A stretch of DNA of 64,000 nt from Solirubrobacterales bacterium (GTDB lineage Bacteria; Actinomycetota; Thermoleophilia; Solirubrobacterales; 70-9). A program made the translations under genes and the position numbers. Positions 14,330 through 37,208 of the stretch are shown piece by piece. Below the pieces are notes generated by a model. That model made no database searches. It saw only the letters and a list, made by a program, of their open reading frames with translations, and was not told the origin of the DNA. Every line of letters begins with the position of its first letter. Positions within the stretch are counted from its first letter, which is position 1. Where the stretch lies: positions 13,753-77,752 of the forward strand of contig DASYKN010000055.1 in the NCBI GenBank assembly GCA_035995325.1, in the 5' to 3' direction.

Positions 14330-14808
14330 CGAGATTAACTCCGACGCCAAGCTCTCGACCAACATCCAGTTTGAGAAATGCGAAGTGGCCCGGTCATTGT
14401 TGGCGAGCCCGCCGCACAGTCCGCCAAGAGTCAGGGTGATCTTGAGAATGACCGCCGTGATCGCCAGGCCGATCAGCGGATCGGCGATCGGTAGGCCGAG
14501 CGCGACAACGATTGCCGTCGCCATGACGGCAAGAACTGTCGAGGCGGTTGCCGGCGCGAGTGCGGATGACTGCTGCGATCCAATTGCCGACAAATCCGAT
14601 CAGCCCGGCGGGGCCAGGCCAAGAAGGTGGGTTGCCGTCTGGGGATGGATCTGCCGCGAGATCGCCTCGAGCCCGGCAACCCAGGCCGAGACAAAGATCG
14701 TCGCGACCACGAACAGCCCCGCCCAACGCTCGGCCCGCCGAGCGCAGCAGGAAGGCGGCGCTGAGCGGGATCGCGGTTGGCATCGCCGAAGTTGTGGATC
14801 AGGTCGGC
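14330..14808 (-). pseudogene. Cation diffusion facilitator (CDF) transporter remnant, frameshifted and truncated
   Basis: CDF-like pieces lie in three different minus-strand frames: IADLIHNFGDA, then ERWAGLFVVATIFVSAWVAGLEAISRQIHP, then LAVMATAIVVALGLPIADPLIGLAITAVILKI. TM1 and the C-terminal cytoplasmic domain are missing. The 5' break coincides with the start of repeat copy A. Confidence 0.65.
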
Positions 14809-14923
14809 AATGAGGGATAGGACGCGATGGTTCAAGTTTCCCCTGGAGGGCGAAGTTGCCCGTTTGCAGGGTGGGTGAGTGGAGCTAGGCGGATTCGAAC
14901 CGCCGACCTCCTGGGTGCGATCC
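14809..14923. repeat. Repeat copy A: about 70 nt of flank F plus a 44-nt 3' fragment of tRNA-Ala(CGC)
   Basis: aatgagggatagga.gcgatggttcaagtttcccctggag.gcgaagttgcccgtttgcagg..gtgggtgag followed by tggagctaggcggattcgaaccgccgacctcctgggtgcgatcc. The latter is identical to 36052-36095 of the intact tRNA gene. Confidence 0.9.
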
Positions 14924-15019
14924 GCGGCGGCGGCCAGGGCTACCTTCGCAATAAGTGGCCTATTTGCAGGGGCTTACCAGCGGGTTGAAGGTCCGTCGAG
15001 CAGCGTTTGAGCCTGTCGG

Positions 15020-15082
15020 ATATGCACGGATATGCGGCGATGTGATCCGAGTCGGGAACTTTTGGCGAGAAGTTCCCGAAAT
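15020..15082. repeat. Conserved cassette-proximal block with an interrupted palindrome
   Basis: atatgcacggatatgcggcgatgtgatccgagTCGGGAACTTttggcgagAAGTTCCCGAaat is nearly identical to 30199-30261. Confidence 0.85.
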
Positions 15083-15363
15083 GACGCGGCGCGGTTCAAG
15101 GCCCATAAACGGAAAGCGCGACGACTCACTGCCCTAAGCCTGCAACGGCGAATTCCATGCTCCCATTGTGTTCACTAGGGACATTGCACGGTGCAAGTCC
15201 ACCGGCCGTCTAAGACGATCGATCCGACCAGTCTAAGAACCTCAGTATGGTCGAAGACCATGCTGAATCCTTCCCCGCCGATGCAATCTATGGCCGTGGA
15301 TGCTGATGGAACTCGGATGCTCGAGCCGTGACAATTTTTTCACGTCTTAGAGAGGAGAGTTGA

Positions 15364-16509
15364 GTGTCGATCAGAGCTACCTCCACGGACGAACTCGCCC
15401 GTCAGGTCGAGGCTAAGGTGGAACTGCCGTCGGGTGGCGCCATCGTCCCGGTGCCCGAGTTTGCCGCCGCCTCTTCCACCCCATGCGATTCCACCGATCT
15501 GCTGAGCTGGATGGGGTGGATGACGGCGGGGCCGCCCACCTTGGCGGCGGAGGTGCTCCGCAGCGCTGGCTACTGGGCGTGGGTTCGCTATCGATGGGCC
15601 TTGGAGGACGCACATGAAGTCGTCAGGCCGACCGCCGCCGCGCGATCGATAAGACAGCACACCCGCTCAATGTTTAGCGAGGCGGTCGGAGTCGGCACGG
15701 CTGGCTACGTCGGCTGCCTGCGCCTTGCCCCGTCGGGATCTTTGGCTGTGGTCAACTTGGACGACACGATTGACCCGCTGCTGACGAGCAGAGTCATCCG
15801 TCGGCGGTTCGGCTCAGGAAAGAGGCAACCCGACTATTTGATCATCGGGGGGCTTGACAGAGGCCGGGTGGAACTCCTAGCGATCGAGTGCAAAGGCACC
15901 GTCAAGAACGAGAGGACCGCGATCGGTCAGCTTGTTGCAGGAGTTCGGCAGGTCCTGGGGGTCGAATCCGACCTGCCCATGCGGAGGGTGGTCTTCGCCA
16001 CCTCGCTGGATCTCGATGAAAAGGAACCGGCCGTGAGGTGCCACGCAATCGAGGTCAAGGCCGAAGACAGATTCCAAGGCGGGCTCGATATCGAAGTTGC
16101 GCGTGAAGCGGTACGGGACGCCGCCTTGATCCGGGCGCTTCGCTGTGCCGGTCGCTACGACGATGCCGAGCGTACGCGCCAAGGCTATGTAGCGGACTGG
16201 TTCGAGCCCCAAGAGACCTTTCGCATCGCCGACAGGCCGATGGTCGGCCGGGGAGTCGAGCTCCTCTCCGTCGACGCCCACCTTCGGGCCGAGGTGGGTG
16301 TCGACCTTGAGCTCCTGCGAGCGCTGGCGGCTCCTCGATCTGAGCGACAGGCTCTTCTTGAGCCGCTGGAAGGTGAGATTCCAGATCAAGAGAGGGACCG
16401 GCGCATCGATAGTCCGGAGCGAGTCCAGCAGGAAACTCTGATGAGGGACGGCCTCGGCATCCGTTTCGAGCGGCGGGGCCGGGATTCCGGCGAAGAGAGA
16501 TTTCAGTAG
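15364..16509 (+). CDS. Hypothetical protein with a PD-(D/E)xK nuclease-like core
   Basis: GTG start preceded by a GAGGAG RBS. Motif KRQPDYLIIGG...VELLAIECKGT (D ... E-x-K). No other domain recognised. Confidence 0.6.
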   Translation: MSIRATSTDELARQVEAKVELPSGGAIVPVPEFAAASSTPCDSTDLLSWMGWMTAGPPTLAAEVLRSAGYWAWVRYRWALEDAHEVVRPTAAARSIRQHTRSMFSEAVGVGTAGYVGCLRLAPSGSLAVVNLDDTIDPLLTSRVIRRRFGSGKRQPDYLIIGGLDRGRVELLAIECKGTVKNERTAIGQLVAGVRQVLGVESDLPMRRVVFATSLDLDEKEPAVRCHAIEVKAEDRFQGGLDIEVAREAVRDAALIRALRCAGRYDDAERTRQGYVADWFEPQETFRIADRPMVGRGVELLSVDAHLRAEVGVDLELLRALAAPRSERQALLEPLEGEIPDQERDRRIDSPERVQQETLMRDGLGIRFERRGRDSGEERFQ

Positions 16510-16516
16510 GGACCTC

Positions 16517-17035
16517 TTGGCCGGCGCCGCCACCTACTTGGTTGAGTTCGACGGTGCGCTCGTCAGGCGCGGATTCTGGCTCTACGTACTTCAGGCCACC
16601 GTCCCGGACGGAGAGCAGTTTCTCTACGTAGGCAGGACGGGCGACAGTTCGTCCTTCAACGCGCAATCCGCCTACAACCGGCTCGGCAAACACCTTGGCG
16701 CCAACACCACGACGAACCAGATGCGCAGGCACCTGACGAAGAAGGAGTTAGAACCGGAGGCCTGCCTTTACCGCTTCGTTGCCTACGGGCCCGTCCTTGC
16801 AGAGGCAGCAACCAAAGACCAAGGCAGTCACTATCCGCTCCGGGACAAGGTGGCGGCGATGGAGAGGGAACTCGCAGTCCTACTAGAGAGAGCAGGCTAC
16901 TTGGTGCTCAACGAAGTCAGGTCAAAAAAATTGCTGGACGAGAACGCATTTCGACCCGTGGTCGCGGCCATCTCCGAGTACTTCCCCAAACTTGCCGAGT
17001 ACTGTTCTCCGCCGGAACAGGACGTGACTCTGTGA
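16517..17035 (+). CDS. Hypothetical protein with GIY-YIG nuclease-like motifs
   Basis: FWLYVLQ...EQFLYVGRTGD...YNRLGKH...MERELA...LNEV fits the GIY / YIG / R / E / N spacing. It starts 8 nt after the previous gene, so an operon is likely. Confidence 0.5.
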   Translation: MAGAATYLVEFDGALVRRGFWLYVLQATVPDGEQFLYVGRTGDSSSFNAQSAYNRLGKHLGANTTTNQMRRHLTKKELEPEACLYRFVAYGPVLAEAATKDQGSHYPLRDKVAAMERELAVLLERAGYLVLNEVRSKKLLDENAFRPVVAAISEYFPKLAEYCSPPEQDVTL

Positions 17036-18811: not shown

Positions 18812-18815
18812 GGGC

Positions 18816-22044: not shown

Positions 22045-22053
22045 AGCCGGCCG

Positions 22054-22824
22054 CTACCTCCGTGAAGTGCTCGCTGGCCAAGCGGCTGCCTGGCGTAGTT
22101 TGCCGAGGGCGCGGTCCTCCAGCTGTCTGACCCGCTCCACGCTGAGGTCGAACTCCCGGCCGATCTCGCGCAGCGTCCGCTGCCGGCAGTCAATCCCGTA
22201 ATGAGCGAAGACGATGCGGCGCTCGCGCTCCTCGAGGCCGGCGGCGAGATCCTGGATATGCTCCCCGCCGGCCAGATCGACGATCCGTTCGTAGTCCTCC
22301 TCGGTGGCCGGATCGGCGAGTCGCTCGACGAAGGTCGTCGCCATCTCCTCGTCGCCGGGAAGTCGCGCCTGCAGGCTGCTCGGGGCGCGCTCGACCGAGA
22401 TCAGATGCTGGATCTGGTCCAGCGGCATTTTCGTACTCTCGGCGAGCTCGGAGTCGGAAGGCTCACGCCGGTTCGCCTGGGCGAAGGCGGATCGCGCCCG
22501 CTTCATCTGGACGAGACTGCGGGTGGCTCGGTCGGAGAGGACGACGGGGCTGGTCAGCTCGGCGACGAGCTGCTGCATCGCCTGCCGAACCCACCACGAC
22601 GCGTAAGCCCAGAACGGCGTCTCGTAACGCTGGTCATAGCGCCGCGCGGCGCGCAGCAGGCCGACCACCCCCTCCTGCTGGAGCTCCCGGCGCTCGAGGC
22701 TGGCAAAGCTCCGGTAGAGGTTCGCGACTCCGTTGATCGCCGGCATAAAGGCCGTCACCAATTCCTCGGTGGCGGTTCGGTCACCGGCCTCGGTCAGGGC
22801 GAGAAGGTGGCGCTCTCGGGCCAT
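22054..22824 (-). CDS. RNA polymerase sigma factor, group 3 (SigB/SigF-like)
   Basis: Region 2: DLQQEGVVGLLRAARRYD...FWAYASWWVRQAM. Region 4: RRIVFAHYG...RTLREIGREFDLSVERVRQLEDRAL. Start at the ATG at 22824. Confidence 0.85.
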   Translation of the reverse strand: MARERHLLALTEAGDRTATEELVTAFMPAINGVANLYRSFASLERRELQQEGVVGLLRAARRYDQRYETPFWAYASWWVRQAMQQLVAELTSPVVLSDRATRSLVQMKRARSAFAQANRREPSDSELAESTKMPLDQIQHLISVERAPSSLQARLPGDEEMATTFVERLADPATEEDYERIVDLAGGEHIQDLAAGLEERERRIVFAHYGIDCRQRTLREIGREFDLSVERVRQLEDRALGKLRQAAAWPASTSRR

Positions 22825-22929
22825 AGGGAGAGGCGAGCTCGCTGGATGCGCCTGGTCGCGCAATGCGCCTTCTTCCGGTGTGTTGCAGTCGGCTGACCGA
22901 ACAGCTCCGGATCACCTTAGACCATAGAT

Positions 22930-23031
22930 CGCCACCCCGATACCCCTTAAAACGCCACCCCGGTACCCCCTTTAAATCCCCTTCAAGAGGCTGCCTAAAC
23001 CTCTTGACGCCAGCCTTTGCCGACCTACCAG
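22930..23031 (+). promoter_or_regulatory. dnaK upstream control region: tandem 22-24-bp direct repeats, an inverted repeat overlapping a TTGACG -35-like box, and a TACCAG box
   Basis: Direct repeats cgccaccccgataccccttaaa (22930-22951) and cgccaccccggtaccccctttaaa (22953-22976). Inverted repeat TCAAGAGG-N9-CCTCTTGA at 22983-23007. TTGACG at 23004-23009 and TACCAG at 23026-23031. Confidence 0.45.
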
Positions 23032-23085
23032 GAGGTGTGAAAGCCCGCGAACGGCCCGGACGCCCGGGCTCGAGAGGAGGCCACG

Positions 23086-24966
23086 ATGGCAAAGGCTGTC
23101 GGAATTGACCTCGGCACGACCAACTCGGTGGTCGCCGCAACGTTGGAGGGCGGACAGGCCGAGGTGATCCCAAACTCCGAGGGCTCACGGACGACGCCAT
23201 CGGTGGTCGCCTTCACTGAGGACAGCGAGCGGTTGGTCGGTCAGATCGCCAAACGCCAGGCGATCCTCAATGCCGAGGCGACCATCTACTCCGCCAAGCG
23301 CTTCATCGGCCGCAAGTGGGGCGAGGTCGACGAGGAGGCGAAAATCGTCTCCTACAAGGTGGTCAAAGGCGAGAACGACGCGGTTCGCTTTGAAGTCCGC
23401 GGCAGGCAACACGCGCCGGAGGAGATCTCCGCACAGGTGCTGCGCAAGCTCGCCGACGACGCGGCCAAGTTCCTCGGCGAAAAAGTCACCGAGGCGGTGA
23501 TCACCGTGCCCGCCTACTTCAACGACTCACAGCGGCAGGCGACCAAAGACGCAGGCAAAATTGCCGGCCTCGAGGTGCTGCGGATCATCAACGAGCCGAC
23601 CGCGGCCGCCCTCGCCTACGGCCTCGACAAGAAAGGCTCCGAGACGGTCCTCGTCTTCGATCTCGGCGGCGGCACCTTCGATGTCTCGCTGCTGGAAGTC
23701 GGCGACGGCGTGATCGAGGTTCGCTCGACCAGCGGTGACGGTCATCTTGGCGGCGACGACTTCGACAAACGGGTGGTCGACTGGCTGGCCGACGAATTCA
23801 AGAAGGACCAGGGAATCGACCTGGCGGCGGATCCCCAGGCCCTGCAGCGCCTCTTCGAGGCCGCCGAGCGGGCGAAGATCGAGCTCTCCTCGACCACCCA
23901 GACGCAGATCAACCTGCCGTACATCACCGCCGACGCGGCGGGCCCGAAACACCTCAACATCACGCTCGCCCGGTCGAAGTTCGAGCAGCTGGTCGAGGAT
24001 CTGATCGCCCGCACCCGTGGGCCGGTCGAACAGGCGCTGAAAGACGCCGGCCTCAGCGCCGACGACATCGACGAGGTGATCCTGGTCGGCGGCTCGACCC
24101 GGATCCCGAAAGTCCAGGACCTGGTGCGCAAACTGACCGGCGGCAAGGACCCGAACCAGACGGTCAATCCGGACGAGGTAGTGGCGATCGGGGCCGCCCT
24201 GCAGGCCGGGGTGCTGAAAGGCGAGGTCGAGGACGTCGTCCTGCTCGACGTCACCCCGCTCTCGCTCGGGCTGGAGACGATGGGCGGCGTGATGACGAAA
24301 GTCATCGAGCGCAACACGACGATCCCAGCCCGGCGGACCGAGGTCTTCTCCACCGCCGAGGACAACCAGACCGCGGTCGACGTCGTCGTCCTCCAGGGCG
24401 AGCGCGAGATGGCCCGCGACAATCGGCAGCTGGCCAAATTCCGGCTCGAAGGAATCCGGCCGGCGCCCCGCGGCGAGCCGCAGGTCGAGGTCACCTTCGA
24501 CATCGACGCGAACGGCATTCTCAACGTCTCTGCGCGCGACAAAGACACCGGTGCCGAACAGCAGGTGACGATCACCGAAACGACCAACCTCGACAGCTCC
24601 GACATCGAGCGGATGATCAAGGAGGCCGAAGAACACGCGGCCGAAGACCGCCAGCAGCGCGAAGAAGTCGACGCCCGCAACGAGCTCGACGCCTTCGCCC
24701 ATCGGGTCGAGCGGCAGCTCGAGGAGCTTGGCGATCGGGTGCCGGTCAACCAGAAGGAACAGGCCGAGGCGCTGGTCCGCGACGCGCGGGGAGCGATCGA
24801 GGAGCAAGCCGGTCTCGACCGTGCGCGGCCGCTGATCTCCGACCTGCAGCAGATGGTTCAGGCGCTGCAGAGTGCCGGTGTGACTGCCGGCCCCCGGGAC
24901 GGCGGCGAGGGTGAGCCCGCGGCCGAGGAGGAGGAAGTCGTCGATGCCGAGTTCACCCGCGAGTGA
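23086..24966 (+). CDS. dnaK: Molecular chaperone DnaK (Hsp70)
   Basis: [22 protein letters not shown] and [14 protein letters not shown] signatures. 626 aa. Confidence 0.97.
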
Positions 24967-25486
24967 AGAGGAGCAACAGGCGGGCCAGGCCGCGGGAGCG
25001 GCGCAGGTGACCAACCAGGAATCAGGCAGCACGCAGCCTCCGCCTCGCGATGACGAGCGTTACCTGCGCGCTCTCGCCGACCTCGAGAACTATCGCAAGC
25101 GCTCGGCGCAGGAAGTGGAGCGGCGGGTCAGCGAACAGGCCGAGCGGCTGCTGCTCGACTGGATCGAGGCGGTGGACAGCGTCGACCGAGCACTGGGGAT
25201 GCAGCCCTCCGACGGGCTGCGCAGAGTCCTCGAGCAGATGGAGGGGATCCTTGCCCGGCAGGGCGTCGCGCGGGTGGGCGCCGTGGGCGATCGCTTCGAT
25301 CCCGAGCTGCACGAGGCGATCTCCGTTCAGGAGAGCGACGAGGTCCCCGACCGCACCGTGCTCGACGTCGCCCGCTCGGGCTATCGCCACAGCGAGCGGG
25401 TGCTGCGCCCGGCCCAGGTGGTGGTTTCGCGGCACGGCGGCGGCTCAGAGCAAAAGCGGAAGCCCAGCGAAGAAAGGAAGGACTGA
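24944..25486 (+). CDS. grpE: Nucleotide exchange factor GrpE
   Basis: [12 protein letters not shown]...[12 protein letters not shown]. The ATG at 24944 overlaps the dnaK 3' end. Confidence 0.9.
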
Positions 25487-26395
25487 TTGGCAGTCGGCTT
25501 TCGCGATTACTACGAGTTACTGGGCGTCCCCCGCGGCGCCGGCGACGAGGAGATCCGCAGCGCCTACCGCAAGCTCGCGCGCGAATTTCATCCGGACGTC
25601 AACAAGGATCCCGACGCCGAGGACCGCTTCAAAGAGGTCTCGGAGGCCTACGAGGTCCTGCGCGACCCCGAGAAACGGGAGAAATACGAACGCCTCGGGA
25701 CGAACTGGAAAGCCGGTGAGGACGTCAGCGGCGCCTCCGGGTTCGGTGGGGGCTTCGGGGGCGGCGACGGCAAGGGATTCGGCGACGCCGCCGGCTTCAG
25801 CGACTTCTTCGAGAGCTTCTTCGGCGGCCGGCGAGGGCCCCCCCGGGGCTTCGATGGCTTCTCGATGCGGGGCGGTGACCAAGAGGCGACGCTCGAGGTC
25901 ACGCTCGAGGAAGCGGCCCGTGGTGGCAAACAGAGCATCTCGCTCCCCGACGGTCGCGATTTCGAGGTGCAGATCCCGCCCGGCGTCCGCGACGGTCAGA
26001 AAATCCGTCTCGCCGGGCAACGCGGGGAAGGGGCGAGCGGCGGTCCGGCGGGGGACCTCTACCTGCGGGTGCGGATCAAACCCCACCCGCGCTTCCGCCG
26101 CGAAGACGACGACCTCGTGGTCGAGGTCCCGGTCGCGCCCTGGGAGGCGGCGCTCGGGGCCACGGTTCCCGTCCCCACCCTCCACGGCAACGCTAAAGTC
26201 AAAGTTCCGGCCGGCTCCTCCAGCGGCCGCCGTTTGCGACTGAGAGGCGAGGGGATGTCGGGCCCCGGCCGGCGCAAGGGCGATCTCTACGCAAGCGTCA
26301 GGATCGTGGTTCCTAAGGTCCTCGAGAAACGCGAGCGCGAGCTGTTCGAGGAGCTGGCCGCGGTCTCGCGGTTCGACCCGAGGCAGGGGCGCTGA
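25487..26395 (+). CDS. cbpA: J-domain co-chaperone without a zinc-finger domain (CbpA-like DnaJ)
   Basis: DYYELLGVPRGAGDEEIRSAYRKLAREFHPDVNKD, a G/F-rich linker and C-terminal substrate-binding domains. No CxxCxGxG repeats. TTG start. Confidence 0.85.
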   Translation: MAVGFRDYYELLGVPRGAGDEEIRSAYRKLAREFHPDVNKDPDAEDRFKEVSEAYEVLRDPEKREKYERLGTNWKAGEDVSGASGFGGGFGGGDGKGFGDAAGFSDFFESFFGGRRGPPRGFDGFSMRGGDQEATLEVTLEEAARGGKQSISLPDGRDFEVQIPPGVRDGQKIRLAGQRGEGASGGPAGDLYLRVRIKPHPRFRREDDDLVVEVPVAPWEAALGATVPVPTLHGNAKVKVPAGSSSGRRLRLRGEGMSGPGRRKGDLYASVRIVVPKVLEKRERELFEELAAVSRFDPRQGR

Positions 26396-26640
26396 TGTCG
26401 CCTGGCACGGCCCTCATCCTCGCCGACGCCCGGGTGCTCGCCCGCCGCTCTGGCCTGCACCCCGACTTGGTGCGGCGGCTGGTCGCGCTCGACGCCGTCG
26501 ACCCCCTCGACTGGGACGCCGCGGCGCGCCTCGCGCGCCTGGTGCGGCTGCGCCACGACCTCGGCCTCAACGTCGCCGGCGCGGCGCTCGCCTGTGACCT
26601 GCTGATGCGGATCGAGGAGCTGGAAGCGCGGCGGCCCTAG
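26395..26640 (+). CDS. cbpM: MerR_2-type chaperone modulator (CbpM/HspR-like)
   Basis: 81 aa. SGLHPDLVRRLVALDAVDP ... RLRHDLGLNVAGAALACDLLMRIEELE. ATGA-type overlap with the cbpA stop. Confidence 0.7.
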   Translation: MSPGTALILADARVLARRSGLHPDLVRRLVALDAVDPLDWDAAARLARLVRLRHDLGLNVAGAALACDLLMRIEELEARRP

Positions 26641-26656
26641 GCGCCCTGCGATAGCC

Positions 26657-27712
26657 ATGGCTGCGGTAAAGCTCGGGCTGATCGTCTCGCCGGCAATCGA
26701 CCAGCTGGCGGTGGACGAGCTGGCGGCCGACCTCGGCGCCGCTCTGGCCGAGCGCTACCCCGAGGTCGAGTGGGAGCTGGAGGTCCTCACCGACTTGTTG
26801 GCCGAGCCGCCGGCACACTTGACCGAACTCGTCTCCGCGGCCCGTCGCCTTCTGCTCGACGCCGACTGGGACCTGGCGGTGGCGGTCACCGAGCTGCCCC
26901 TGCGACTCGCTCACCGGACGTTGCTCAGCCATGCCAGCCGCACCCACGGCGTCGCGTTGGTCTCGCTACCGGCGCTCGGCGTCCTGAGGCGCCGCCGACG
27001 CCTCCACGACGTCGTCGCCGACGCGGTCGGGACGCTGGTTGGCGATCCGGTGCGCGGCCGCGCCTCCCAGTCCGCCGCCGCTCGGCTCGGAGTCGAGCGC
27101 CGCCTCGCCGAGCTGGCTGGCGAGGTCGACGACGGGGGCGCCGCCTACGTCGCCCGGGTGATCGGCGGCAACTTGCGGCTGTTGGCCGGGATGGTTGGCG
27201 CCAATCACCCCTGGCGGCTGGTCGGGCGGCTTTGGCGGGCGATGCTGGCGGCGGTTGCGGCTGTCGCCTTCGGCTTGATCCAGATCGAAGTCTGGAAAAT
27301 CGCCGCAACCCTCGGGCCGCTGCGACTGGCGCTCGCCGCCCTCGCCTCGATCGCCGCCGCCTCAGTGACGTTGATCGCCGGCCACCGCCTCTGGGAGCGC
27401 GCACCCGACCCTCGCGTGCGCGAGCAGGTGACGCTGTTCAACCTGGCGACCACCGCAACGGTCGTGTTCGGAATCATCGCGCTCTACTTCTTCGTGTTCG
27501 TCGCCAGCCTCGTTGCCGCCCTGCTGCTGATCGAACCGTCGCTTCTCTCGCAAGCGCTTGGGCGAGACACGGACGTCTGGGATTACGTGCGCCTCGCCTG
27601 GCTCTCGACCGCCCTGGGGACGATTGGCGGCGCCCTGGGGGCGACCTTGGAGACCGACGAGGCGGTCAGCGAGGCCGCCTACACGTACCGACCGACGAGC
27701 GCCCGCGAGTGA
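26657..27712 (+). CDS. Hypothetical integral membrane protein
   Basis: A soluble N-terminal half is followed by about four hydrophobic helices (WRAMLAAVAAVAFGLIQIEVW, LALAALASIAAASVTLIAG, VVFGIIALYFFVFVASLVAALLLI, WLSTALGTIGGALGA). Confidence 0.6.
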   Translation: MAAVKLGLIVSPAIDQLAVDELAADLGAALAERYPEVEWELEVLTDLLAEPPAHLTELVSAARRLLLDADWDLAVAVTELPLRLAHRTLLSHASRTHGVALVSLPALGVLRRRRRLHDVVADAVGTLVGDPVRGRASQSAAARLGVERRLAELAGEVDDGGAAYVARVIGGNLRLLAGMVGANHPWRLVGRLWRAMLAAVAAVAFGLIQIEVWKIAATLGPLRLALAALASIAAASVTLIAGHRLWERAPDPRVREQVTLFNLATTATVVFGIIALYFFVFVASLVAALLLIEPSLLSQALGRDTDVWDYVRLAWLSTALGTIGGALGATLETDEAVSEAAYTYRPTSARE

Positions 27713-27734
27713 TAGCGCGCCGATTCGAGCTGAG

Positions 27735-29162
27735 CTAGCCCAGGGCGTCGCGGATCGGCGCGTCGGCCGGCGTGATCGCGATCAGCTTGCGATTGGCGAA
27801 CTCGAGGATCCCGAGGTGGGAGAGCTCGCGCCCGAAGCCGGAGCGCTTGGCTCCGCCGAAGGGAAGGGTCGGCTCCGAGGCGGTCGGGTGGTTCACGAAG
27901 ACCATCCCGGCCTCGAGCCGGTCGGCCACCGCCTGGGTGCGCTCGCCGTCGCTGCCGAACACCGCCCCGCCGAGCCCGTACTGCGAGCCGTTGGCGAGGG
28001 CGATCGCCTGCTCGTCCGACTCGACCCGGTACACGGCAGCCACCGGACCGAACAGCTCCTCGTGGTAGGCGCGCATCTCAGGGGTGACGTCGACCAGGAT
28101 CGTCGGCTCGACGAAGGCGCCCGGCCGGTCGATGCGGCGGCCGCCGGTCACCACGCCGGCGCCCTTCTCGATCGCCTCGTCGACCTGCTCGATCGCCAGC
28201 TCGGCCGCCCGCTCGGAGGAGAGCGGCGCCAGCGTCGTCCTCTCGTCGAACGGGTCGCCGGGTTCGAGCTCGGCCATCCGTTCGGCAAGGCCGTCGAGGA
28301 AGTCTTGGAAGACGTCGGCCATCACGATCATCCGCTTGGCGCTGGTGCAGACCTGGCCCATGTTGTGCATCCGCCCGACGAACGCCGCCTCCACGGTGCG
28401 CTCGAGGTTGGCGCCGTCGAGGACGATGAAGGGGTCGCTACCACCGAGCTCGAGCACCGCCTTCTTGACGGCGCGCCCGGCCTCCTCGCCCAAGGCGGAG
28501 CCGGCCCGGTCGCTGCCGGTCAGCGAGCAGCCCTGCACGAGCGGGCTCTCGACCATCCGCGCGATGTCCTCCACCTCGACGAAGACGTTGGTGAAGACGC
28601 CCTCGGGAGCACCGGCATCTGCGAACAGCGCCTCGATCGCCAGGGCGGATTGGGGCACGCTCCGCGCGTGCTTGAGCAGGATCGTGTTGCCGAGCACCAG
28701 ATTCGGGGCGCTGATCCGGATCGCCTGGTAGGCGGGGAAGTTCCAAGGCTGCACGGTCAGCAGGACCCCGAGCGGCTCGGTGCGGATGAGCGCCGAGCCC
28801 TCGTCGTCCATCTCCAGCGGCTGATCGGCGATCTGCGCCGGGCCCTTCTGCGCGTAGTACTCGAGGATTCGGATCGTCAGGTCCAACTCCGCCCGGCTAT
28901 GGCGGATCAGCTTCCCCATCTCGAGCGTAATCGTCCGCGCCAGCTCCTCGTAGTGCTTCCGCATCAGCAGCGCCGCGCGCCCGACGATCCCGGCCCGCTC
29001 CGCCGCCCCCCGTTCTCGCCACGGCCCCGACGCGCGCTGGGCCCGCTCCATGACCCGATCGATCTCCTCGCCGCGCAGCGACGGGAACTCCCGCACGACC
29101 TCGTTGGTGTACGGGTTGACGGTCGCGAAGCTGCTGCGGGCGCCTGCCTTGGTATGAGCCAT
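27735..29162 (-). CDS. NAD(P)-dependent aldehyde dehydrogenase (succinate-semialdehyde dehydrogenase-like)
   Basis: [22 protein letters not shown] (catalytic Cys) and EELFGPV motifs. Start at the ATG at 29162. Confidence 0.9.
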
Positions 29163-29213
29163 CGTCAGGGGCGTTGGTAGGCCACTCGCGCCGCCGGTCA
29201 ACCGCTGCGCCTC

Positions 29214-29777
29214 CTACGCCCGCAGCGCGGAGATGTCGATTCGCACCGCAACCTGCTCGCCGACCAGCAGCCCGCCGCCGACAAGCGACTGCTGCCAGGT
29301 GAGACCGAACTCGGTCCGGTCGATCGAGCCGCGGACCGCGACGCCGACGCGATCGTTGCCCCAGGGGTCGACGGCTGCGCCTTCGACGTTGGCCTCAACC
29401 TGGATCTCGCGGGTGACGTCCTTGATCGTCAGGTTGCCGGTGACCCGGTAGCTCCCGAGCACGACGTGCTCGATCGCGGTCGACTCGAACGTGATCGACG
29501 GCCAGCGCTCGGCGTCGAAGAAGTCCGGCCCCAGAAGGTGTTCATCGCGGTCGGCGTTGTTGGTGTCGATCGAGGCGACCTGGACGCTGCCCCAGACCCG
29601 CGAGTCGTGGTAGTCCTCGGCCGCCTCCAGCGTCCCCTCGTACTGTTTGAAGTGGCCGCGGACGGTGGAGATCATCATGTGCTTAACCTCGAAGCCGACG
29701 CTGGAGTGGATCGGGTCGACCCTCCAGGTACCGGTCGGCACCCGCACGATTCCCTGTTCGGTCTGCAGCTGGGTCAT
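29214..29777 (-). CDS. YceI family periplasmic polyisoprenoid-binding-like protein
   Basis: WRVDPIHSSVGFEVKHMMISTVRGHF...DTNNADRDEHL...LTIKDVTREI. Confidence 0.85.
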   Translation of the reverse strand: MTQLQTEQGIVRVPTGTWRVDPIHSSVGFEVKHMMISTVRGHFKQYEGTLEAAEDYHDSRVWGSVQVASIDTNNADRDEHLLGPDFFDAERWPSITFESTAIEHVVLGSYRVTGNLTIKDVTREIQVEANVEGAAVDPWGNDRVGVAVRGSIDRTEFGLTWQQSLVGGGLLVGEQVAVRIDISALRA

Positions 29778-29925
29778 TGGAGTTGCTCCTTGTCGGTTAG
29801 GTACTCGTACCGCCGTTCCGCAACGTCCCTCGCCGACCGGGGGCGACGCAAACGATCGCTGCGTAGGGCGCCCATGTTGCTTTTCCGGTAGGCCGCCGCG
29901 GCGCTTCTGTCAACGGGCGGAATCG

Positions 29926-30099
29926 ACGGGAATCGGCGTCAATCCCCGCATATCCAGGCCATTTCGGGAACTAGTTCCCGAAATGCGGGGATAGGAGGCG
30001 ATGGTTAAGTTTCCCCCTGGAGAGCGAAGCTGCCCGTTTGCAGGGGGTGTGGGTAAGTGGAGCTAGGCGGATTCGAACCGCCGACCTCCTGGGTGCGAT
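29926..30099. repeat. Repeat copy C: full flank F (132 nt) plus a 42-nt 3' fragment of tRNA-Ala(CGC)
   Basis: Near-identical by eye to 35919-36093. Contains the 24-bp perfect palindrome ATTTCGGGAACTAGTTCCCGAAAT at 29961-29984. Confidence 0.9.
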
Positions 30100-30198
30100 T
30101 CAAGGTGGCAGGCTAGGATTTCTACTTCAATAAAGCGCTTCTTTACAGGGAATTTCTAGTCCTATGCCGGGAGCATCGAGCGACGATTCTCGCGCCAA

Positions 30199-30261
30199 AT
30201 ATGCGCGGATATGCGGCGATGTGATCCGAGTCGGGAACTTCTAGCGAGAAGTTCCCGAAAT
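30199..30261. repeat. Conserved cassette-proximal block with an interrupted palindrome
   Basis: atatgcgcggatatgcggcgatgtgatccgagTCGGGAACTTctagcgagAAGTTCCCGAaat. This is the paralogue of 15020-15082. Confidence 0.85.
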
Positions 30262-30332
30262 CGCAGAGGCCGGTTCAAGACTTCCGAGCGGCCGGCGAGA
30301 GTCGACTCAGCCTGTCGCGCTCTTACGCATGA

Positions 30333-32690
30333 CTAAACAACGCCGTCGGACTCCCCGGTGAGCAGCCACTCCCGCAGGTCCACCAAGAAGGCGTAGTCCT
30401 CTTCGCTGATCGCGCCTCCGTGGGAGACTTCGTTTCGGATCGGGTTGAGACGCTTGATCCAGTCCAGGCGGTTTTTCCAGGTACCGGAGAGATCCTCGTC
30501 TTCGGGTCGCGTGTAGCGAGCGGCGAAGCGGCTTTCCCAGACCGCGTTGGTGCAGGACTTGATCACCTCGTAGTAGTCGACGATGTACATCATGTCCCAG
30601 CCGCCCACCTGTTCTGACGGGTCGAGGTCGAGGTTCTTCTCAATCGCCCGCTCGGCGCTCTCCTTGCGGACCTTGCGCGGGATCCCGAGGCGTTCCCAGT
30701 CTTTGCCGTGCTCGTCCTCGAGCCGCTCGCGGATGTCCTTCTTGAAGAAGGCCTCAAGGTCGCCGACGATCTCCCGGGCCTGGTTGGTGTACTGCTTGTC
30801 CTGGGCTTTTTCCCACTCATCGAGGCCCGGGGCTTTGAAGTTGGGCCGCGCCGCGCGCACCGCCTGCTGGAGCTTTCGATAGTACTTCGAGCCGGCGCCC
30901 GAGCCGTAGTTCGTGCGGTATTCGACGCCCTCCTCGCGGCTCAGCCCCTCGAGGTGGTCTACCAGCGAGTCCAGGTAGGGGCGACAGGCCTCGACCATTT
31001 CCCCGGTGCTGGTGCTGAGTGGATTAACTCCCTCGTCCTCGATCACGGTTTCGACGATGTCGCTGAGCACCCGCAGGAGCGCCTCAACCCCGTTATTCAT
31101 GAAGACGAAGCCGCCCTCGGCGCTGCCGTACTGCCATTGCGCGGGCAGCCCCTCTTTGAGGATCTCGAAGCTGGCCTCGAGGAACGGCGTTAGGAGGTCG
31201 GCGGTCGGCTGGTTGTCACCTGCGTAGAAGGTGCCCACCTTTTTCGCACCCGCTTTCGTGAAGCTGCCGATGAAGTTTCCGCGCCGCAGACCGTTGTCGA
31301 TCGCGTCGATCGTGATCGACCTCGTGTGCGTTTTGGCGTTCTCACCGATGATCATCCGGTCAAAGAGCGGCGAGGACTTCTGCTCGCCGAGGTGCTGGGC
31401 GATCCTCAGGCGCAGGGCCTTTGCGCGCTGGCGGTAGTCGTCTGAAGCCCAGAGCAGGTCCGAGTTCAGCGTGTTCCGCAGGTTCTTGGGAACCGCCTGC
31501 TGGTTCTCGTTGATCTGCATGAAGAGGCGAACCTGCTCCTCTCTCGGCAGGTCGACGAAGGCGACGACCGGGACCAGGTCGGTCTCGGTCCGGCTTGAGT
31601 CGGCGTACCCGTAGAGGCGATGCTGTCCGTCGATGACGTAGGCGGCCCGATAGGTCTGCGGCAGGTGCAGGAGCCCAATTTTCGAGGGCCCGGGCGATTT
31701 CGGAGCGAGGTCGAACTGCAGCCCACCTCTCCTTTTCCCGGTTTCGATGTTGAGGATGATCGAGTTCGGGAAGAAGCCACCCCCCTCGACGAACTCGGCG
31801 ACCTTTCTCAGGCGCGATTTCTTGATCAGCCGCTGATAGGTGGGCATCAGCGCGCTGTTGGCTTGGTTTCGGTGCAGCACGTAGGACATCTTCAGCAGGC
31901 GCGCGGGCTCGATCGCGAAGGAGAAGTAGGTGTAACCGCCCATCGAGCCGCGGATCGCCGGCACTTCCGGCTCGAGGTTCGGGATCCTCGTCCCGGCGAA
32001 CAACGCGCCGAGCAGCTGGTATTTCGCGGCGGCCCCCAGGTGCTCTGCCAGCCGCAGGTAGTACTCGACCGTGTCCTCGTCGACGTGGAAGATTTGGGCG
32101 CCCTCGACACGCTCTTTGACCTGCGCGGAGAGGGTGTAGTTGTTAGTCGCGAGCAGGAAGCGGATCTTGTGGTCGGGGTACTCTTCTTTAACCCGCCGGA
32201 CGATCCCCTGCCGCCGTCCCGAGATCGCCTCGACCTCCTTCTTGAACTGCCCGGGGCGGATCGTCTCAGAGGATTTGCACTCGATCAGCAGCACTGACTC
32301 CTCATCGGCCGCGAATACGTCGATTTGCTGCTTTGCGCTCGCCGCCGCCCCGTAGCTCAGCTTGAAAGAGCCGTCGCGATTCAGGTGCGGGAACTGCAGC
32401 TGCGCGCACATCGCCCAGACGCGGTCCTCGAAGGCTCGCTCGTGGCGCTTCTCGCGCCGCATTTTGGTCCGGATTTTCAGCTCCTTCTCGACAACCCAGC
32501 CGTCGGCTTCGTAGGCCTCGACCTTCGCCTTCGAAATCGTCTCGAAGGCGTGGGGCAGAAGCCGCTTCCGCGTCTCGCCTTTGATTTTGTTGAACGCCAG
32601 GAGGTGATCGCTGATTGCCTCCCCGGGAACCCAGATCGCCTTCGTCTCCGTTTTCGCGTTTGCCTCCGCTTCCGTCTCGGCCCTCGCCAT
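30333..32690 (-). CDS. Three-domain protein: N-terminal PD-(D/E)xK nuclease-like, central DGQHR (DndB/ParB-like) and C-terminal HEPN (Rx4H) domains
   Basis: QQIDVFAADEESVLLIECKSS (D...ExK). AYVIDGQHRLYGY and FMQINENQQAV (DGQHR/DndB signatures). C-terminal LNPIRNEVSHGG (HEPN R-x4-H). The start codon shares one base with the MTase stop (TGATG). Confidence 0.75.
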   Translation of the reverse strand: MARAETEAEANAKTETKAIWVPGEAISDHLLAFNKIKGETRKRLLPHAFETISKAKVEAYEADGWVVEKELKIRTKMRREKRHERAFEDRVWAMCAQLQFPHLNRDGSFKLSYGAAASAKQQIDVFAADEESVLLIECKSSETIRPGQFKKEVEAISGRRQGIVRRVKEEYPDHKIRFLLATNNYTLSAQVKERVEGAQIFHVDEDTVEYYLRLAEHLGAAAKYQLLGALFAGTRIPNLEPEVPAIRGSMGGYTYFSFAIEPARLLKMSYVLHRNQANSALMPTYQRLIKKSRLRKVAEFVEGGGFFPNSIILNIETGKRRGGLQFDLAPKSPGPSKIGLLHLPQTYRAAYVIDGQHRLYGYADSSRTETDLVPVVAFVDLPREEQVRLFMQINENQQAVPKNLRNTLNSDLLWASDDYRQRAKALRLRIAQHLGEQKSSPLFDRMIIGENAKTHTRSITIDAIDNGLRRGNFIGSFTKAGAKKVGTFYAGDNQPTADLLTPFLEASFEILKEGLPAQWQYGSAEGGFVFMNNGVEALLRVLSDIVETVIEDEGVNPLSTSTGEMVEACRPYLDSLVDHLEGLSREEGVEYRTNYGSGAGSKYYRKLQQAVRAARPNFKAPGLDEWEKAQDKQYTNQAREIVGDLEAFFKKDIRERLEDEHGKDWERLGIPRKVRKESAERAIEKNLDLDPSEQVGGWDMMYIVDYYEVIKSCTNAVWESRFAARYTRPEDEDLSGTWKNRLDWIKRLNPIRNEVSHGGAISEEDYAFLVDLREWLLTGESDGVV

Positions 32691-33532
32691 CAGCCGGCCG
32701 TCTCCAGGTTCGTGAAAAGAAGCTCTTTCGCGCTGCCCCGTATTGCGTTCGCTCCCCCCACCGAGTTGCGTCGGCTGGTCTTGATCACCGAGTCACCCTT
32801 GTCGAACAGCTCGATGATCGAGTCGTGCGCCGCGTTGGCGAGGATGTAGTGGGCGTCGCGCTCCTTGATCTCATCAACTAGCTTGCTGAGGCGGCGCTGG
32901 TCCTCAAAGGAAAAAAGCCGCTGGTTGTACTTCACGAATCCGTTTTCATTGTGGGCGACCGTGTAGGGGGGGTCGAGGAAGACCAAGTCCCCGGCGCCTA
33001 CCCGGTCGATGCACTTGGCGAAGTCGCTGGCTTTCAGGGTGGCCTGCTCCAGTCGAGAGGCCACCGCCCGCAGCTGCTCTGCGGTAGGGATGTGGGCGAT
33101 CCGCTCGCCGCCAAAGGGCACGTTGTAGGTCCCTGCCAGGTTGACGCGGTAGATGCCGTTGAACGAGGTGTGGTTCAGGTAGAGGAAGCGAGCGGCGCTC
33201 TCGATCAACCCGCCCGGAACCGATGCCCTGACCTTGTAGTAGGTCTCTTCATCGCGGGCGTACGCCCGGGCTTTGTTGGCGACCCGGGTCGGGTGATCCC
33301 TGATCGCCTCGAAGGCGGAGATCAGCTCCACGTTGGTATCGCTGAGGTGAGCTTTCGAGAACGGGCCCAGAGCCAGAAAAACCGAGGCGCCGCCCAGGAA
33401 GGGCTCGTGATAGGCGGCGATCTCGGTCTCGCCGACCAGCTTTCTTAGCTTCGGGATCAGCCACCGCTTGCCGCCGACCCACCGCAGCGGCGAGGCCACC
33501 GACGCAGTCGTCTCGCTCGCCCCCGTCGTCAC
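32690..33532 (-). CDS. Dam-like (D12 class) N6-adenine DNA methyltransferase
   Basis: PLRWVGGKRWL, HEPFLGGASVF (motif I) and VFLDPPYTV (motif IV, DPPY). GTG start at 33532 chosen inside ORF 32690..33637 (alternative at 33541). Confidence 0.85.
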   Translation of the reverse strand: MTTGASETTASVASPLRWVGGKRWLIPKLRKLVGETEIAAYHEPFLGGASVFLALGPFSKAHLSDTNVELISAFEAIRDHPTRVANKARAYARDEETYYKVRASVPGGLIESAARFLYLNHTSFNGIYRVNLAGTYNVPFGGERIAHIPTAEQLRAVASRLEQATLKASDFAKCIDRVGAGDLVFLDPPYTVAHNENGFVKYNQRLFSFEDQRRLSKLVDEIKERDAHYILANAAHDSIIELFDKGDSVIKTSRRNSVGGANAIRGSAKELLFTNLETAG

Positions 33533-33645
33533 CGGTGCAACCCTATCGTCGTGAGTTGTACGTCGTAAGTGCCGTCCATTACTCAGATGGAACCGCGTAC
33601 GTGGCAAACGCGGCCCCGGTGAGTGACAGGGAGGCACCGAGGATC

Positions 33646-33929: not shown

Positions 33930-34019
33930 AGGCATTCCGGCGTCAATCGTGAAGCCGTCTTTTGCGGGAGGCTTGAGTGGAGCTAGGCGGATTCGAACCG
34001 CCGACCTCCTGGGTGCGAT
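33930..34019. repeat. Repeat copy D: internally deleted flank F (about 48 nt) plus a 42-nt tRNA-Ala(CGC) 3' fragment
   Basis: ggcattccggcgtcaatcg...gaagccgtcttttgcgggaggcttgag followed by tggagctaggcggattcgaaccgccgacctcctgggtgcgat. Confidence 0.85.
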
Positions 34020-34231
34020 TCGGGTGGCGTCTAGGAACTTCCTCATCGCCCTGATGATCGGGCGCGACGACGATCCACTTCTAGCAACGCTGCCAGGGAT
34101 CGGACGCTGGTATGTGGACGTCGCTCGCCCGTGGGTCTGTTGAGACTTCCCGCAAACAGGGGGTCGTCCGCTCAGATCTAGATTATCCAGGCGCTACCTT
34201 TCGTCCTGTGACGAGGCTAAGATACGAACAT

Positions 34232-35918: not shown

Positions 35919-36051
35919 GGCGGAATCGGCGTCAATCCCCGCGTATCCAGGCCATTTCGGGAACTAGTTCCCGAAATGAGGGGGATAGGAGGCGATGGTT
36001 CAAGTTCCCCCTGGAGAGCGAAGTTGCCCGTTTGCAGGGGGTGTCGGTGAG
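35919..36051. repeat. Flank F copy E, directly abutting the 3' end of the intact tRNA-Ala(CGC)
   Basis: Near-identical by eye to 29926-30057. Palindrome ATTTCGGGAACTAGTTCCCGAAAT at 35954-35977. Confidence 0.9.
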
Positions 36052-36124
36052 TGGAGCTAGGCGGATTCGAACCGCCGACCTCCTGGGTGCGATCCAGGCG
36101 CTCTGCCAGCTGAGCTATAGCCCC
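36052..36124 (-). tRNA. tRNA-Ala (anticodon CGC)
   Basis: The reverse complement is GGGGCTATAGCTCAGCTGGCAGAGCGCCTGGATCGCACCCAGGAGGTCGGCGGTTCGAATCCGCCTAGCTCCA. It folds as a cloverleaf with a G3:U70 pair, anticodon loop AUCGCAC and a GTTCGAATC T-loop. Confidence 0.95.
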
Positions 36125-36209
36125 GAGGGCGTGGCTGGGAAGTTGATCCCACTGCCTCGCAAGCGGAAGGATAACCGCATAGTCTTTGCCAGCCTCCCGG
36201 GAACCGGCT

Positions 36210-37208
36210 ATGAGCATCCTCGACGACGCAATCCGTGAGCACCTGGAACTGAAGCGCGCCCATGGCGCGGATGACGTCGAGCTTAAAAAGCTCGAGGACG
36301 AGGCGTTTGGGCCGCCGGCCCGGCCCGATGAGCCAGATCCGTATGCCGAGGCCCCGACCGAGTTCCTGGTCGCCCCTGGCAGCGAGGACGCCTCTGGGGA
36401 GGACGACCAGGGCGGGCGTCGCGCCCCCAACATCACCGACTTGCAGGAGGCGCCCGCGCCTTCGCCGGAGCCCGCCGACGCTCCCGAGGCCGAGCAGGCA
36501 GCCGACGAGGAGCAGCCCGCCGCCGATCCCGACCCCATCGCCGACGCCGGCCACTCGACCGAGGAGCGGCACGCGATCGCCTCGCAGCCGACCGAAATCT
36601 TCGACGTCCAGGGCCAATTCGAGGACGCCGCCACCGAGGCCGACGCCCCCTCCGACGAGGAGCTTGCCGACGCCGAGCTGGCTGAGCCGCGCCTCGCCCC
36701 GGTCGACCCGATCGCCGGGATCGAGGCCTCCGCTGCTCCCTCCTCCGAGCCAGCCGCCGCCGAGGAGGAGCATGAGGACGAATTCGACGAGTTCTTCAGC
36801 GAGCAGCGCCTCTCCGACGAGCTGAACCAGGCGCTCGAGGCGCCGCTCCCGGACGAGCCCGGCGCCCCCGTGACCGAGGAAGCGACCGCCCTCTACGACG
36901 TGGTCGAGGCCGAGGAGGCCGAGATCGCCGACGAGACCGCGCCCCCGCTGGAGGAGGACTCGGCCGAGTACGAGATCGTCGAGAGCGACTCCGAGGAACA
37001 TGAGGTAGCCGACGAGGCTTCCGATGAATTCGAGACGGTCGAGGGCGATTCCAAGGACGAAGGCGAGGCGCCCGCCGCCTCCAGCCCGCCGCCCCCCGCG
37101 CACGAGGACGTGCTGGAGGACACCCCGCAGTTCCTCGAGGACGCGCCCGAGGACGACGAGCTTTGGTTCGAGCAGCGTCCCCCCAAGGACATCGACTTCG
37201 GCGACTAG
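36210..37208 (+). CDS. Highly acidic low-complexity protein (D/E/A/P-rich), function unknown
   Basis: ATG at 36210 (MSILDDAIREHLELKR...). The long acidic middle lies between structured-looking N- and C-termini (DELWFEQRPPKDIDFGD). The antisense ORF 36057..37262 is judged a shadow. Confidence 0.6.
   Translation: MSILDDAIREHLELKRAHGADDVELKKLEDEAFGPPARPDEPDPYAEAPTEFLVAPGSEDASGEDDQGGRRAPNITDLQEAPAPSPEPADAPEAEQAADEEQPAADPDPIADAGHSTEERHAIASQPTEIFDVQGQFEDAATEADAPSDEELADAELAEPRLAPVDPIAGIEASAAPSSEPAAAEEEHEDEFDEFFSEQRLSDELNQALEAPLPDEPGAPVTEEATALYDVVEAEEAEIADETAPPLEEDSAEYEIVESDSEEHEVADEASDEFETVEGDSKDEGEAPAASSPPPPAHEDVLEDTPQFLEDAPEDDELWFEQRPPKDIDFGD

Follow-up and report, generated by a model that had tools for sequence, protein, structure and literature searches.

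Palindromes as putative protein-binding sites in the attachment arms of integrase-less cassettes at a tRNA-Ala gene

What is the function of the palindromes that mark the ends of small gene cassettes accumulated at a tRNA gene, when the cassettes themselves encode no recombinase? The locus that raises this question lies in a 64,000-nucleotide stretch of Solirubrobacterales DNA (contig DASYKN010000055.1; hereafter the window), in which three cassettes, A, B and C, are linked to copies of a tRNA-Ala segment. Our analysis assigns the palindromes, with moderate confidence, to accessory or arm-type putative protein-binding sites in the attL and attR arms of tRNA-integrating elements. On the sequence comparisons described here, they most likely act as protein docking sites in insertion and excision. 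The palindromes had been pointed out in an earlier note based on the letters of the window, which missed that the arms belong to a family of tyrosine-integrase elements.

The segment of tRNA-Ala that extends from the anticodon loop to the 3' end recurs as a 45-nt copy at 14880-14924, 30058-30102 and 33978-34022. Altogether there are four identical core copies of 42-45 nt, starting at 14880, 30058, 33978 and 36052, the last one within the intact tRNA-Ala(CGC). Repetition of a tRNA 3' segment at cassette borders is the signature of successive integration of elements into the tRNA. Read along the plus strand, a junction consists of a P arm, the core (i.e., the tRNA 3' fragment) and a P' arm, followed by divergence into cargo, and an element runs from a tRNA 3' fragment through P' arm, cargo and P arm to the next tRNA copy. 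Crossover probably takes place in the duplicated 45-nt tRNA core and not at the palindromes.

The arms have conserved lengths of about 130 nt (P) and about 200 nt (P'), and the full P-core-P' unit of ~350 bp has the size of an attP of the lambda type or of the type found in the integrative and conjugative elements of actinomycetes (AICEs). The P arm is composed of inverted CCGCATATCC-type motifs, the perfect palindrome, an GGTTCAAG motif and TTTGCAGGG, while the P' arm starts with TTTGCAGGG and continues with three direct 11-nt GATATGCGG-type repeats, a split palindrome with the loop YCTGGCGAGA, and GGTTCAAG. The 11-nt repeats are thus present in both arms, as two to three direct copies in P' and as inverted copies in P, in addition to the four palindrome half-sites. 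In the P arm at 35922-36050 the inverted GATATGCGG-type motifs (CCCCGCGTATCC) precede the palindrome, the GGTTCAAG motif and TTTGCAGGG, and in the P' arm at 30103-30290 the order is TTTACAGGG, three 11-nt GATATGCGG-type repeats (30197-30229), split palindrome and GGTTCAAG. The distance from palindrome to core in the window is about 73-100 nt on the P side and about 130-155 nt on the P' side. Conservation of the arms extends into the element ~45 nt past the P palindrome and ~30 nt past the P' palindrome, and because it continues past both, the palindromes are internal to the arms and do not form the border between arm and cargo. A motif GGTTSRAR trails both palindromes at a short and fairly fixed distance (29988-30057, 35982-36050, 30262-30279, and in relatives); in the P arm, a small covarying hairpin resembling a T-arm has it in its loop. 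The motif TTTGCAGGG is present on both sides of the core. An Rfam search of the 14.5-36.5 kb region at E <= 1 returned tRNA only, and the arms match no known RNA family.

The perfect 24-bp palindrome ATTTCGGGAACTAGTTCCCGAAAT is present, as exact matches, at 29961-29984 and 35954-35977, where the earlier note had placed it, and shuffled sequence gave no match to it even with three mismatches permitted. The copy at 29.9 kb is indeed enclosed by a second inverted pair, CCCCGCAT...ATGCGGGG (29944-29951 and 29983-29990), which is predicted to fold as an outer helix; in the copy at 35.9 kb the outer pair is imperfect (CCCCGCGT...ATGAGGGG). Likewise as described, the split form TCGGGAACTT-N8-AAGTTCCCGAAAT with its 8-nt spacer is found at 15052-15082 and 30231-30261. 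The half-site 9-mer TTCGGGAAC has six matches in the window compared with 0.42 expected, which together with the empty shuffles bears out the view that random similarity is unlikely. A count over the whole assembly (1.93 Mb, 70.5% GC, 74% complete) yielded 14 matches, with 28 for a reversed-pattern control, so that the half-site is neither abundant nor randomly spread. Eight of the matches lie away from the locus as lone half-sites without a partner arm, in coding-looking sequence, and every paired, that is palindromic, copy of the assembly is situated in this one locus. DNA folding predicts stable hairpins, with -18.2 kcal/mol (z = -5.8) for the 29961-29984 palindrome with its outer pair and -15.0 kcal/mol (z = -4.5) for the split palindrome at 30231-30261. 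The palindrome has a GC content of 42% within a genome of 70.5% GC.

The claim that the half-site recurs at every cassette boundary goes too far. At the junction with the third tRNA fragment (33930-34110) both palindromes have been lost by internal deletion, and the flank copies at 14808-14879 and 17092-17156 are without palindrome. At 14808-14879, homology to the P arm at 29926-30057 (flank F) starts at the final bases of the absent P palindrome (...GCAATGAGGGATAGG compared with ...GAAATGAGGGGGATAGG), and a 165-aa open reading frame (ORF; 14316-14813) extends to that break, which makes it another breakpoint at a palindrome edge.

Conservation of the arms was assessed in 185 genomes of the genus, which are kin and hence not independent samples; relatives are referred to by G numbers, and the tables of P and P' sites take in the listed matches only, with 35 further P matches left out. 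A P arm is found beside the core in 99 of the 185 genomes, and a P' of the GGCGAG-loop type beside a tRNA fragment in 42 (57 sites), so the palindromes do occur at cassette boundaries in related genomes. Relative to the core start, the P palindrome occupies -99..-72 and the P' palindrome about +160..+200 in 15+ genomes, and among the matches listed the same P position is held in 112 sites across the genus. These 112 listed sites contain 67 distinct P palindromes; pairing is complete (12 of 12 positions) in 55 sites and lacks one position (11 of 12) in 23. In the 44 distinct type-I P sequences, 92.3% of cells are paired, and eight of ten pairs are altered on both sides. The covariation score for P is 0.39, compared with 0.15 in shuffles (none of 500 as high) and at most 0.11 in slid controls. 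Of the 54 P' sites among the matches listed, 49 have arms that pair without a mismatch over 8 nt; five classes are distinguished, TCGGGCAC, TCAGGCAC, TCGGGAAC, TCAGCCAC and TCACCCAC, and the loop YCTGGCGAGA is conserved while the stems vary. Further palindrome types are CAGGCAG-TTT-CTGCCTG and TGGCAC-CA-GTGCCA. Distances from core to P' form classes near 154, 164 and 175 nt, i.e., 11-nt steps in the copy number of the arm repeat, one step corresponding to two versus three copies of the 11-nt GCATATC repeat. The GCTAATC variant of this repeat tends to accompany the TCAGCCAC palindrome type. An exact-pattern scan for the P' arm gave two matches in public genome contigs, one of them in a Solirubrobacterales metagenome-assembled genome, and none in viral contigs.

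The two palindromes of one element tend to share their half-site. Pairing of each P' with the next P downstream, at a distance of 4-71 kb, yields 24 within-element pairs, 19 of which have the same 8-mer at both ends. For pairs that face each other across a junction, 270 bp apart and belonging to different elements, the 8-mer is identical in 7 of 13, and in 4 of 13 six or fewer of the eight positions are shared. In G024, TCAGCCAC is found at either end of the inner element and the outer P' is TCGGGCAC; G157, G175 and G009 follow the same pattern, and in G015 and G012 rare palindrome types are found at both ends. Such matching fits units that recombine at the tRNA core, each with its own pair of arms.

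The arms belong to the element and not to the chromosomal target, since they are found at tRNA-Ala(CGC) and, in relatives, at tRNA-Gly(GCC). In G003, a 27-kb element at tRNA-Gly(GCC) shares both the P and the P' arm, the latter with TTCGGGAAC-N12-GTTCCCGAA, and encodes a 601-aa tyrosine recombinase (L037:12005-13810, C10) together with a Replic_Relax protein. The tRNA-Ala genes of G010 and G030, on the other hand, have unrelated flanks. Homologues of the integrase are present within the tRNA-Ala arrays of nine relatives (G012, G029, G009, G034, G126, G094, G087, G111 and G137), 0.2-7 kb from the P end and oriented towards the tRNA, and the gene adjoins a Replic_Relax gene in G012, G029 and G003. 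A 52-kb element in G029 combines both palindromes (TCAGGCAC) and the integrase with XRE, ArsR-like and ribbon-helix-helix genes beside the P arm; XRE homologues are also present in G034 and G009.

At E <= 1e-60 the integrase family is represented in 61 of the 185 genomes, with proteins of roughly 450-600 aa. In the long members (~550-600 aa), an Mrr_N-like winged-helix domain (PF14338, 1.4e-10) lies at the C terminus, and the N-terminal ~80 aa form an unassigned region, for which no Pfam or PDB sequence match was obtained. Short homologues (~445-480 aa) are without the C-terminal domain, and at the loci of five of them (G064, G081, G153, G206 and G181) a GGCAC-N2-3-GTGCC palindrome is located at -93..-60 from the tRNA. 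Because the palindrome is retained where the domain is absent, the Mrr_N-like domain is not needed for it and was rejected as a required palindrome reader. In G098, a more distantly related integrase is located at tRNA-Gly, and the place of the palindrome is taken there by an ordinary terminator-like hairpin.

Some loci broaden the picture of targets and layouts. At locus L087 (G197:C5, oriented 8221-8342), a palindrome GGCAGAAAT-N4-ATTTCTGCC with a half-site related to that of type-II arms lies 26 nt after tRNA-His(GTG); it is downstream, by ~6.5 kb, of a member of the same integrase family, and tRNA-His may be a third target of the family. At L084 (G137:C3, oriented 1769-2160), the integrase is followed by a P palindrome, a tRNA-Ala that ARAGORN scores as complete, a P' arm with palindrome, and a tRNA 5'-half-like ATCCAGGCGCTCTGCCGGCTGAG; this element seems to carry a whole tRNA copy, and G027:C14:82373-82571 resembles the arrangement.

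These observations suggest a working model. Elements of this family would insert into the segment from the anticodon loop to the tRNA's 3' end, and attL and attR would together be equivalent to an attP. The four half-sites, two in each arm, would dock a sequence-specific protein of the cognate element, for which the N-terminal part of the integrase and a neighbouring small helix-turn-helix protein or directionality factor are candidates. The bound protein would introduce bends into the arms and bring the recombination complex together, and the half-site would give each element lineage an address of its own. The three cassettes of the window would either have lost the integrase or never had it, and would resemble cis-mobilizable elements (CIMEs) that a matching integrase could move in trans; cis-mobilization is proposed because the arms have been kept though the integrase is absent. 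Recognition at the level of DNA is supported by the match between P and P', the absence of a U-tract, the lack of strand bias in the mismatches, the 42% GC content, and the 11-nt steps in repeat number.

Several of our data do not sit easily with docking of an element-encoded protein. The half-sites are spaced by 0-4 nt in P and by 8-12 nt in P', and no rigid dimer fits both; a monomeric arm-binding domain acting on four independent half-sites would reconcile the two spacings, as a rigid dimer would not. Strict Watson-Crick compensation, together with a conserved loop between varying arms, is the prediction for a hairpin and the opposite of that for a classical dimer operator. In the window's own genome, which is 74% complete, no match to the integrase family was found, and the only two matches to PF00589 are Xer-like. 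The contrast between within-element and junction pairs is modest, with a rough one-sided p, not formally computed, of ~0.1 for the class with eight of eight positions shared and ~0.04 for the class with six or fewer, and the match between P and P' could be explained by co-inheritance instead of shared recognition. In addition, comparison of G155 with G095 shows a P' that changed in both of its arms while P retained the older half-site.

The strongest alternative is that the palindromes act through nucleic-acid structure. As DNA, a cruciform or hairpin would bend the att arms or be recognized by its shape; as RNA, a hairpin would terminate or insulate transcription in the stretch from cargo to tRNA. 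Many independent compensatory changes maintain the complementarity of the palindrome arms, the P' loop is constant between variable stems, and the P' of G155 was compensated independently of its P. The predicted folds are stable, at -15 to -18 kcal/mol with z = -4.5 to -6, and the loop is free in size, as it is in hairpins. Palindromes also recur as rearrangement breakpoints (G018, G029, window position 14808 and, at the palindrome centre, G027), which is expected of DNA that extrudes hairpins. However, neither strand has a U-tract, and a terminator scan calls no terminator at the palindromes; an intrinsic terminator was rejected on these grounds, the ATTT...AAAT flanks being part of the stem. 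G.T and A.C mismatches in the P palindromes are equally frequent (13 and 14), and thus no RNA strand is favoured. The stem bases are AT-rich in a 70% GC genome, and a purely structural role leaves the stem sequence shared by P and P' of one element unexplained. Hairpin-templated mutation is, moreover, known to maintain complementarity in quasi-palindromes without selection, so the compensation can be kept without function. We regard the structural explanation as possible, though doubtful.

A bolder version of the docking proposal is equally tentative in our estimation. Here, the matched palindromes would constitute a lineage specificity code that is read by a domain, in the integrase or in a partner protein, that co-evolves with it and, in a radical variant, the hairpins would themselves serve as exchange points independent of integrase. 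If the code exists, an integrase would mobilize only its own integrase-less defence cassettes, and if the radical variant were true, the array would be a tRNA-anchored analogue of an integron.

Less probable is an explanation outside the recombination complex, in which the palindromes would be bound as operators by a repressor of the XRE or Kor type, encoded by the element, that controls transcription across the element ends, for instance that of integrase and excision genes, or reading through into the tRNA. In G029 and G034, XRE genes with an HTH_3 domain adjoin the integrase gene and the P arm, G009 has paralogues of them, and the element-specific half-sites resemble immunity specificities. 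There is precedent in the AICEs, all of which encode XRE or GntR regulators and whose Kor proteins bind inverted repeats of 14-16 bp (PMC2440964). The cassettes of the window and many of those in relatives, however, encode no such repressor and yet have kept perfect palindromes, which are fixed in position relative to the tRNA core and not to gene starts, and promoter-like hexamers are absent in their vicinity. Extra operator-like copies were looked for inside integrase-bearing elements, and the only one found was a solo P' at a breakpoint in G029; apart from it, no additional copy was seen at promoters in these elements. In the short-integrase elements of G064, G081 and G153, only 280-385 nt separate the end of the integrase gene from the tRNA, the palindrome lies within this gap, and a regulator gene cannot fit there. 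We therefore consider operators unlikely. A LexA (Cheo/SOS) box, GAAC-N4-GTTC, was rejected as an identity for the palindromes, as the two halves are separated by N2 in P and by N12 in P', and relatives have GCAC/GTGC in place of GAAC/GTTC.

The solo copy in G029 (G029:C1, L056-L058, reverse-oriented ~41985-42012) consists of a P'-type palindrome with its right flank inside the 52-kb element; the palindrome borders on the left on a truncated reading frame that resembles trpD (anthranilate phosphoribosyltransferase), and the breakpoint coincides exactly with the palindrome.

We attach little probability to the suggestion that crossover happens at the palindromes themselves, as at lox, FRT, dif or attC sites, with cargo swapped between P' and P on an integron-like platform at the tRNA. 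The P' palindrome does have the geometry of a simple tyrosine-recombinase site, with inverted arms of 10-12 bp and, between them, an asymmetric 8-nt spacer that is conserved; several breaks in homology coincide with the edge or the centre of a palindrome, and in G018 a P'/P hybrid palindrome joins the arms without cargo, with 253 bp from core to core. Such a hybrid is present in only one of the 185 genomes, the search having revealed none besides that in G018. Tyrosine recombinases use overlap regions of 6-8 bp, and the P spacer of 0-4 nt is thus too short for strand exchange. The conservation of ~30 nt past P' and ~45 nt past P places the cargo borders elsewhere, the duplications of the tRNA fragment are explained only by exchange within the tRNA, and both IntI and the RYYYAAC/GTTRRRY motif are absent. 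The G018 locus (G018:C87, L027/L068; L027 1266-1560) has the appearance of an empty cassette, in which a partial tRNA-Ala core, together with a P' arm of normal make-up, leads into the hybrid GAG-TCAGCCAC-TA-GTGGCTGAAAT, which runs directly into a P arm and the intact tRNA. Finally, a generic dispersed repeat of the repetitive extragenic palindromic (REP) or bacterial interspersed mosaic element (BIME) class, or chance similarity, is suggested by the palindromic form alone and has a negligible probability, because there are 14 half-sites in 1.93 Mb, those outside the locus being lone half-sites in coding-looking sequence and all paired ones confined to this locus without genome-wide dispersal, the palindrome has no match in shuffled sequence, and the palindromes are tied to tRNA fragments in relatives.

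Table 1 Attachment arms, palindromes, tRNA copies and cassette cargo in the window
Feature	Position	Strand	Evidence or remark
P arm preceding the 14880 core, cut at the right edge of the would-be palindrome	14808..14879		Alignment with relatives
tRNA-Ala 3' fragment, att core copy	14880..14924	-	Repeat analysis
P' arm of cassette A, 11-nt repeats at 15019-15049	14925..15100	+	Repeat family D8
P' split palindrome, stranded cassette A, loop TTGGCGAG	15052..15082	.	Repeat analysis
Cassette A cargo: two uncharacterised nuclease-like proteins	15364..17035	+	...ELLAIECKG... motif seen in translation
P arm (flank F)	29926..30057	+	94-97% identical to 35922-36050
P-arm palindrome, second copy, inside outer pair	29961..29984	.	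Sequence match; DNA fold
45-nt tRNA-Ala 3' copy, att core and likely crossover region	30058..30102	-	Repeat analysis
P' arm of cassette B	30103..30290	+	23-sequence alignment; 57 genus sites
P' split palindrome, 10-12-bp arms, loop CTAGCGAG	30231..30261	.	Sequence match; DNA fold
Cassette B cargo: 785-aa DndB/DpdB-like protein and D12 N6-adenine methyltransferase	30333..33637	-	Pfam; PADLOC
tRNA-Ala 3' fragment at the degraded cassette B/C junction, both palindromes deleted	33978..34022	-	Repeat analysis
Cassette C cargo: ShosA (DprA-like) and ShosT (phosphoribosyltransferase-like), anti-phage system	34112..35897	+	PADLOC
P arm beside the intact tRNA	35922..36050	+	Repeat families D6, D7, D11; alignment with relatives
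P-arm palindrome, perfect 24 bp, right end of ShosTA cassette	35954..35977	.	73 nt downstream of the tRNA 3' end
Intact tRNA-Ala(CGC), integration target (attB side)	36051..36124	-	ARAGORN; Rfam tRNA 66.9 bits

All three cassettes are integrase-less (Table 1): cassettes B and C encode defence genes only, with PADLOC E-values of 5.6e-68 for ShosA and 2.2e-9 for ShosT in cassette C, and cassette A has two nuclease-like genes whose products gave no Pfam or PADLOC match. No integrase gene was found in the window. The two PF00589 matches of the genome are on other contigs and are Xer-like by both score and length, and the arm-associated integrase family has 0 matches in the assembled 74% of this genome. 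Between the stranded cassette A and cassette B lies a native-looking heat-shock block (17157-29925) that includes dnaK, grpE and a sigma factor. Upstream of tRNA-Ala(CGC) there are a conserved gene of unknown function and an ABC transporter. The protein encoded directly upstream of the tRNA (36186-37208, 340 aa, no Pfam match) is syntenic across the genus and fast-evolving, with 43-75% identity compared with 85-92% for the neighbouring ABC ATPase. Just past tRNA-Ala(TGC), seven tandem repeats of ~177-186 nt (39327-40488) within a 639-aa ORF (39085-41004) encode a repeat protein and have no relation to the palindromes.

The findings have consequences beyond this locus. They explain how small anti-phage cassettes, such as ShosTA and the methylase with a DndB-like nuclease, can be present in a tRNA-linked array without a recombinase, as the window cassettes keep complete, lineage-specific attachment arms. 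The arms define a widespread att-site architecture for an uncultured, high-GC lineage (P arm in 99 of 185 genomes), and the 67 natural palindrome variants constitute a ready mutational series for the role of accessory palindromes in integrase complexes. If the half-site is indeed an address code, it would offer a simple way to predict the integrase by which a given cassette is moved. From a literature search and general knowledge, we are aware of no description of matched, fast-diversifying, element-specific palindromes in both att arms, nor of an association of such palindromes with a long integrase family in an uncultured lineage.

How do the cassettes relate to known systems? The earlier note had offered a recombinase or regulator site, or a hairpin comparable to integron attC, and of these, participation in site-specific recombination is the interpretation we prefer, while the likeness to attC fails. 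As with attC, the site is defined by structure, with palindromy kept while the sequence varies, and it is located at the ends of promoter-poor, recombinase-less cassettes in arrays. There are, however, two palindromes and a tRNA fragment per cassette, without IntI, attI or Pc. An attC identity was rejected, as the palindromes are perfect and have no extrahelical bases, and CGGGAAC/GTTCCCG has purines where attC needs pyrimidines (RYYYAAC/GTTRRRY). With loxP, FRT and dif the P' palindrome has in common the inverted arms and the 8-nt asymmetric, conserved spacer, but the arms of the P palindrome are only 0-4 nt apart; the assembled portion of the genome yielded no dif-like ATAAT-N6-TTATG motif.

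That integrative elements accumulate in tandem at a tRNA gene, with CIME-like members that have no integrase, is known. The likeness to CIMEs and to the accretion of ICESt1 and ICESt3 lies in att-bounded segments without integrase or transfer genes, arranged in tandem at one tRNA, and in the presence of related integrase-bearing elements in sister genomes; the difference is that no helper element was found in the present, 74%-complete genome. To our knowledge, drawn from the literature search and general background, matched conserved palindromes in both arms are no described feature of CIMEs. Stacking at tRNA or tmRNA genes with adaptive or defensive cargo is also shared with the ssrA islands of Dehalococcoides (PMC3146451) and with tycheposons (bioRxiv 10.1101/2020.12.28.424599).

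The att arms of lambda-type Int systems, mycobacteriophage L5, pSAM2, SLP1 and pMEA300 resemble those described here in the block of identity from anticodon loop to tRNA 3' end that is duplicated at the element ends. As in the attP of heterobivalent, lambda-type integrases, a site of ~350 bp contains short motif repeats in both arms, and with P'1-3 and P1/P2 of lambda there is a parallel in that the repeats are direct in P' and inverted in P. Actinomycete AICEs are alike in having an integrase gene that reads towards att and XRE-type regulators nearby (PMC2440964). Their layout of integrase, attP downstream, and an XRE or GntR regulator (PMC2440964) is matched by the arrangement of integrase, att and XRE genes in G029-type elements. 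Compared with the lambda, L5 and pSAM2 types, no excisionase was recognised in the present system and the copies in the window are without integrase, the integrase of the family is unusually long and in many copies has a C-terminal Mrr_N-like domain, and each arm contains a palindrome with a shared, fast-diversifying and element-specific half-site.

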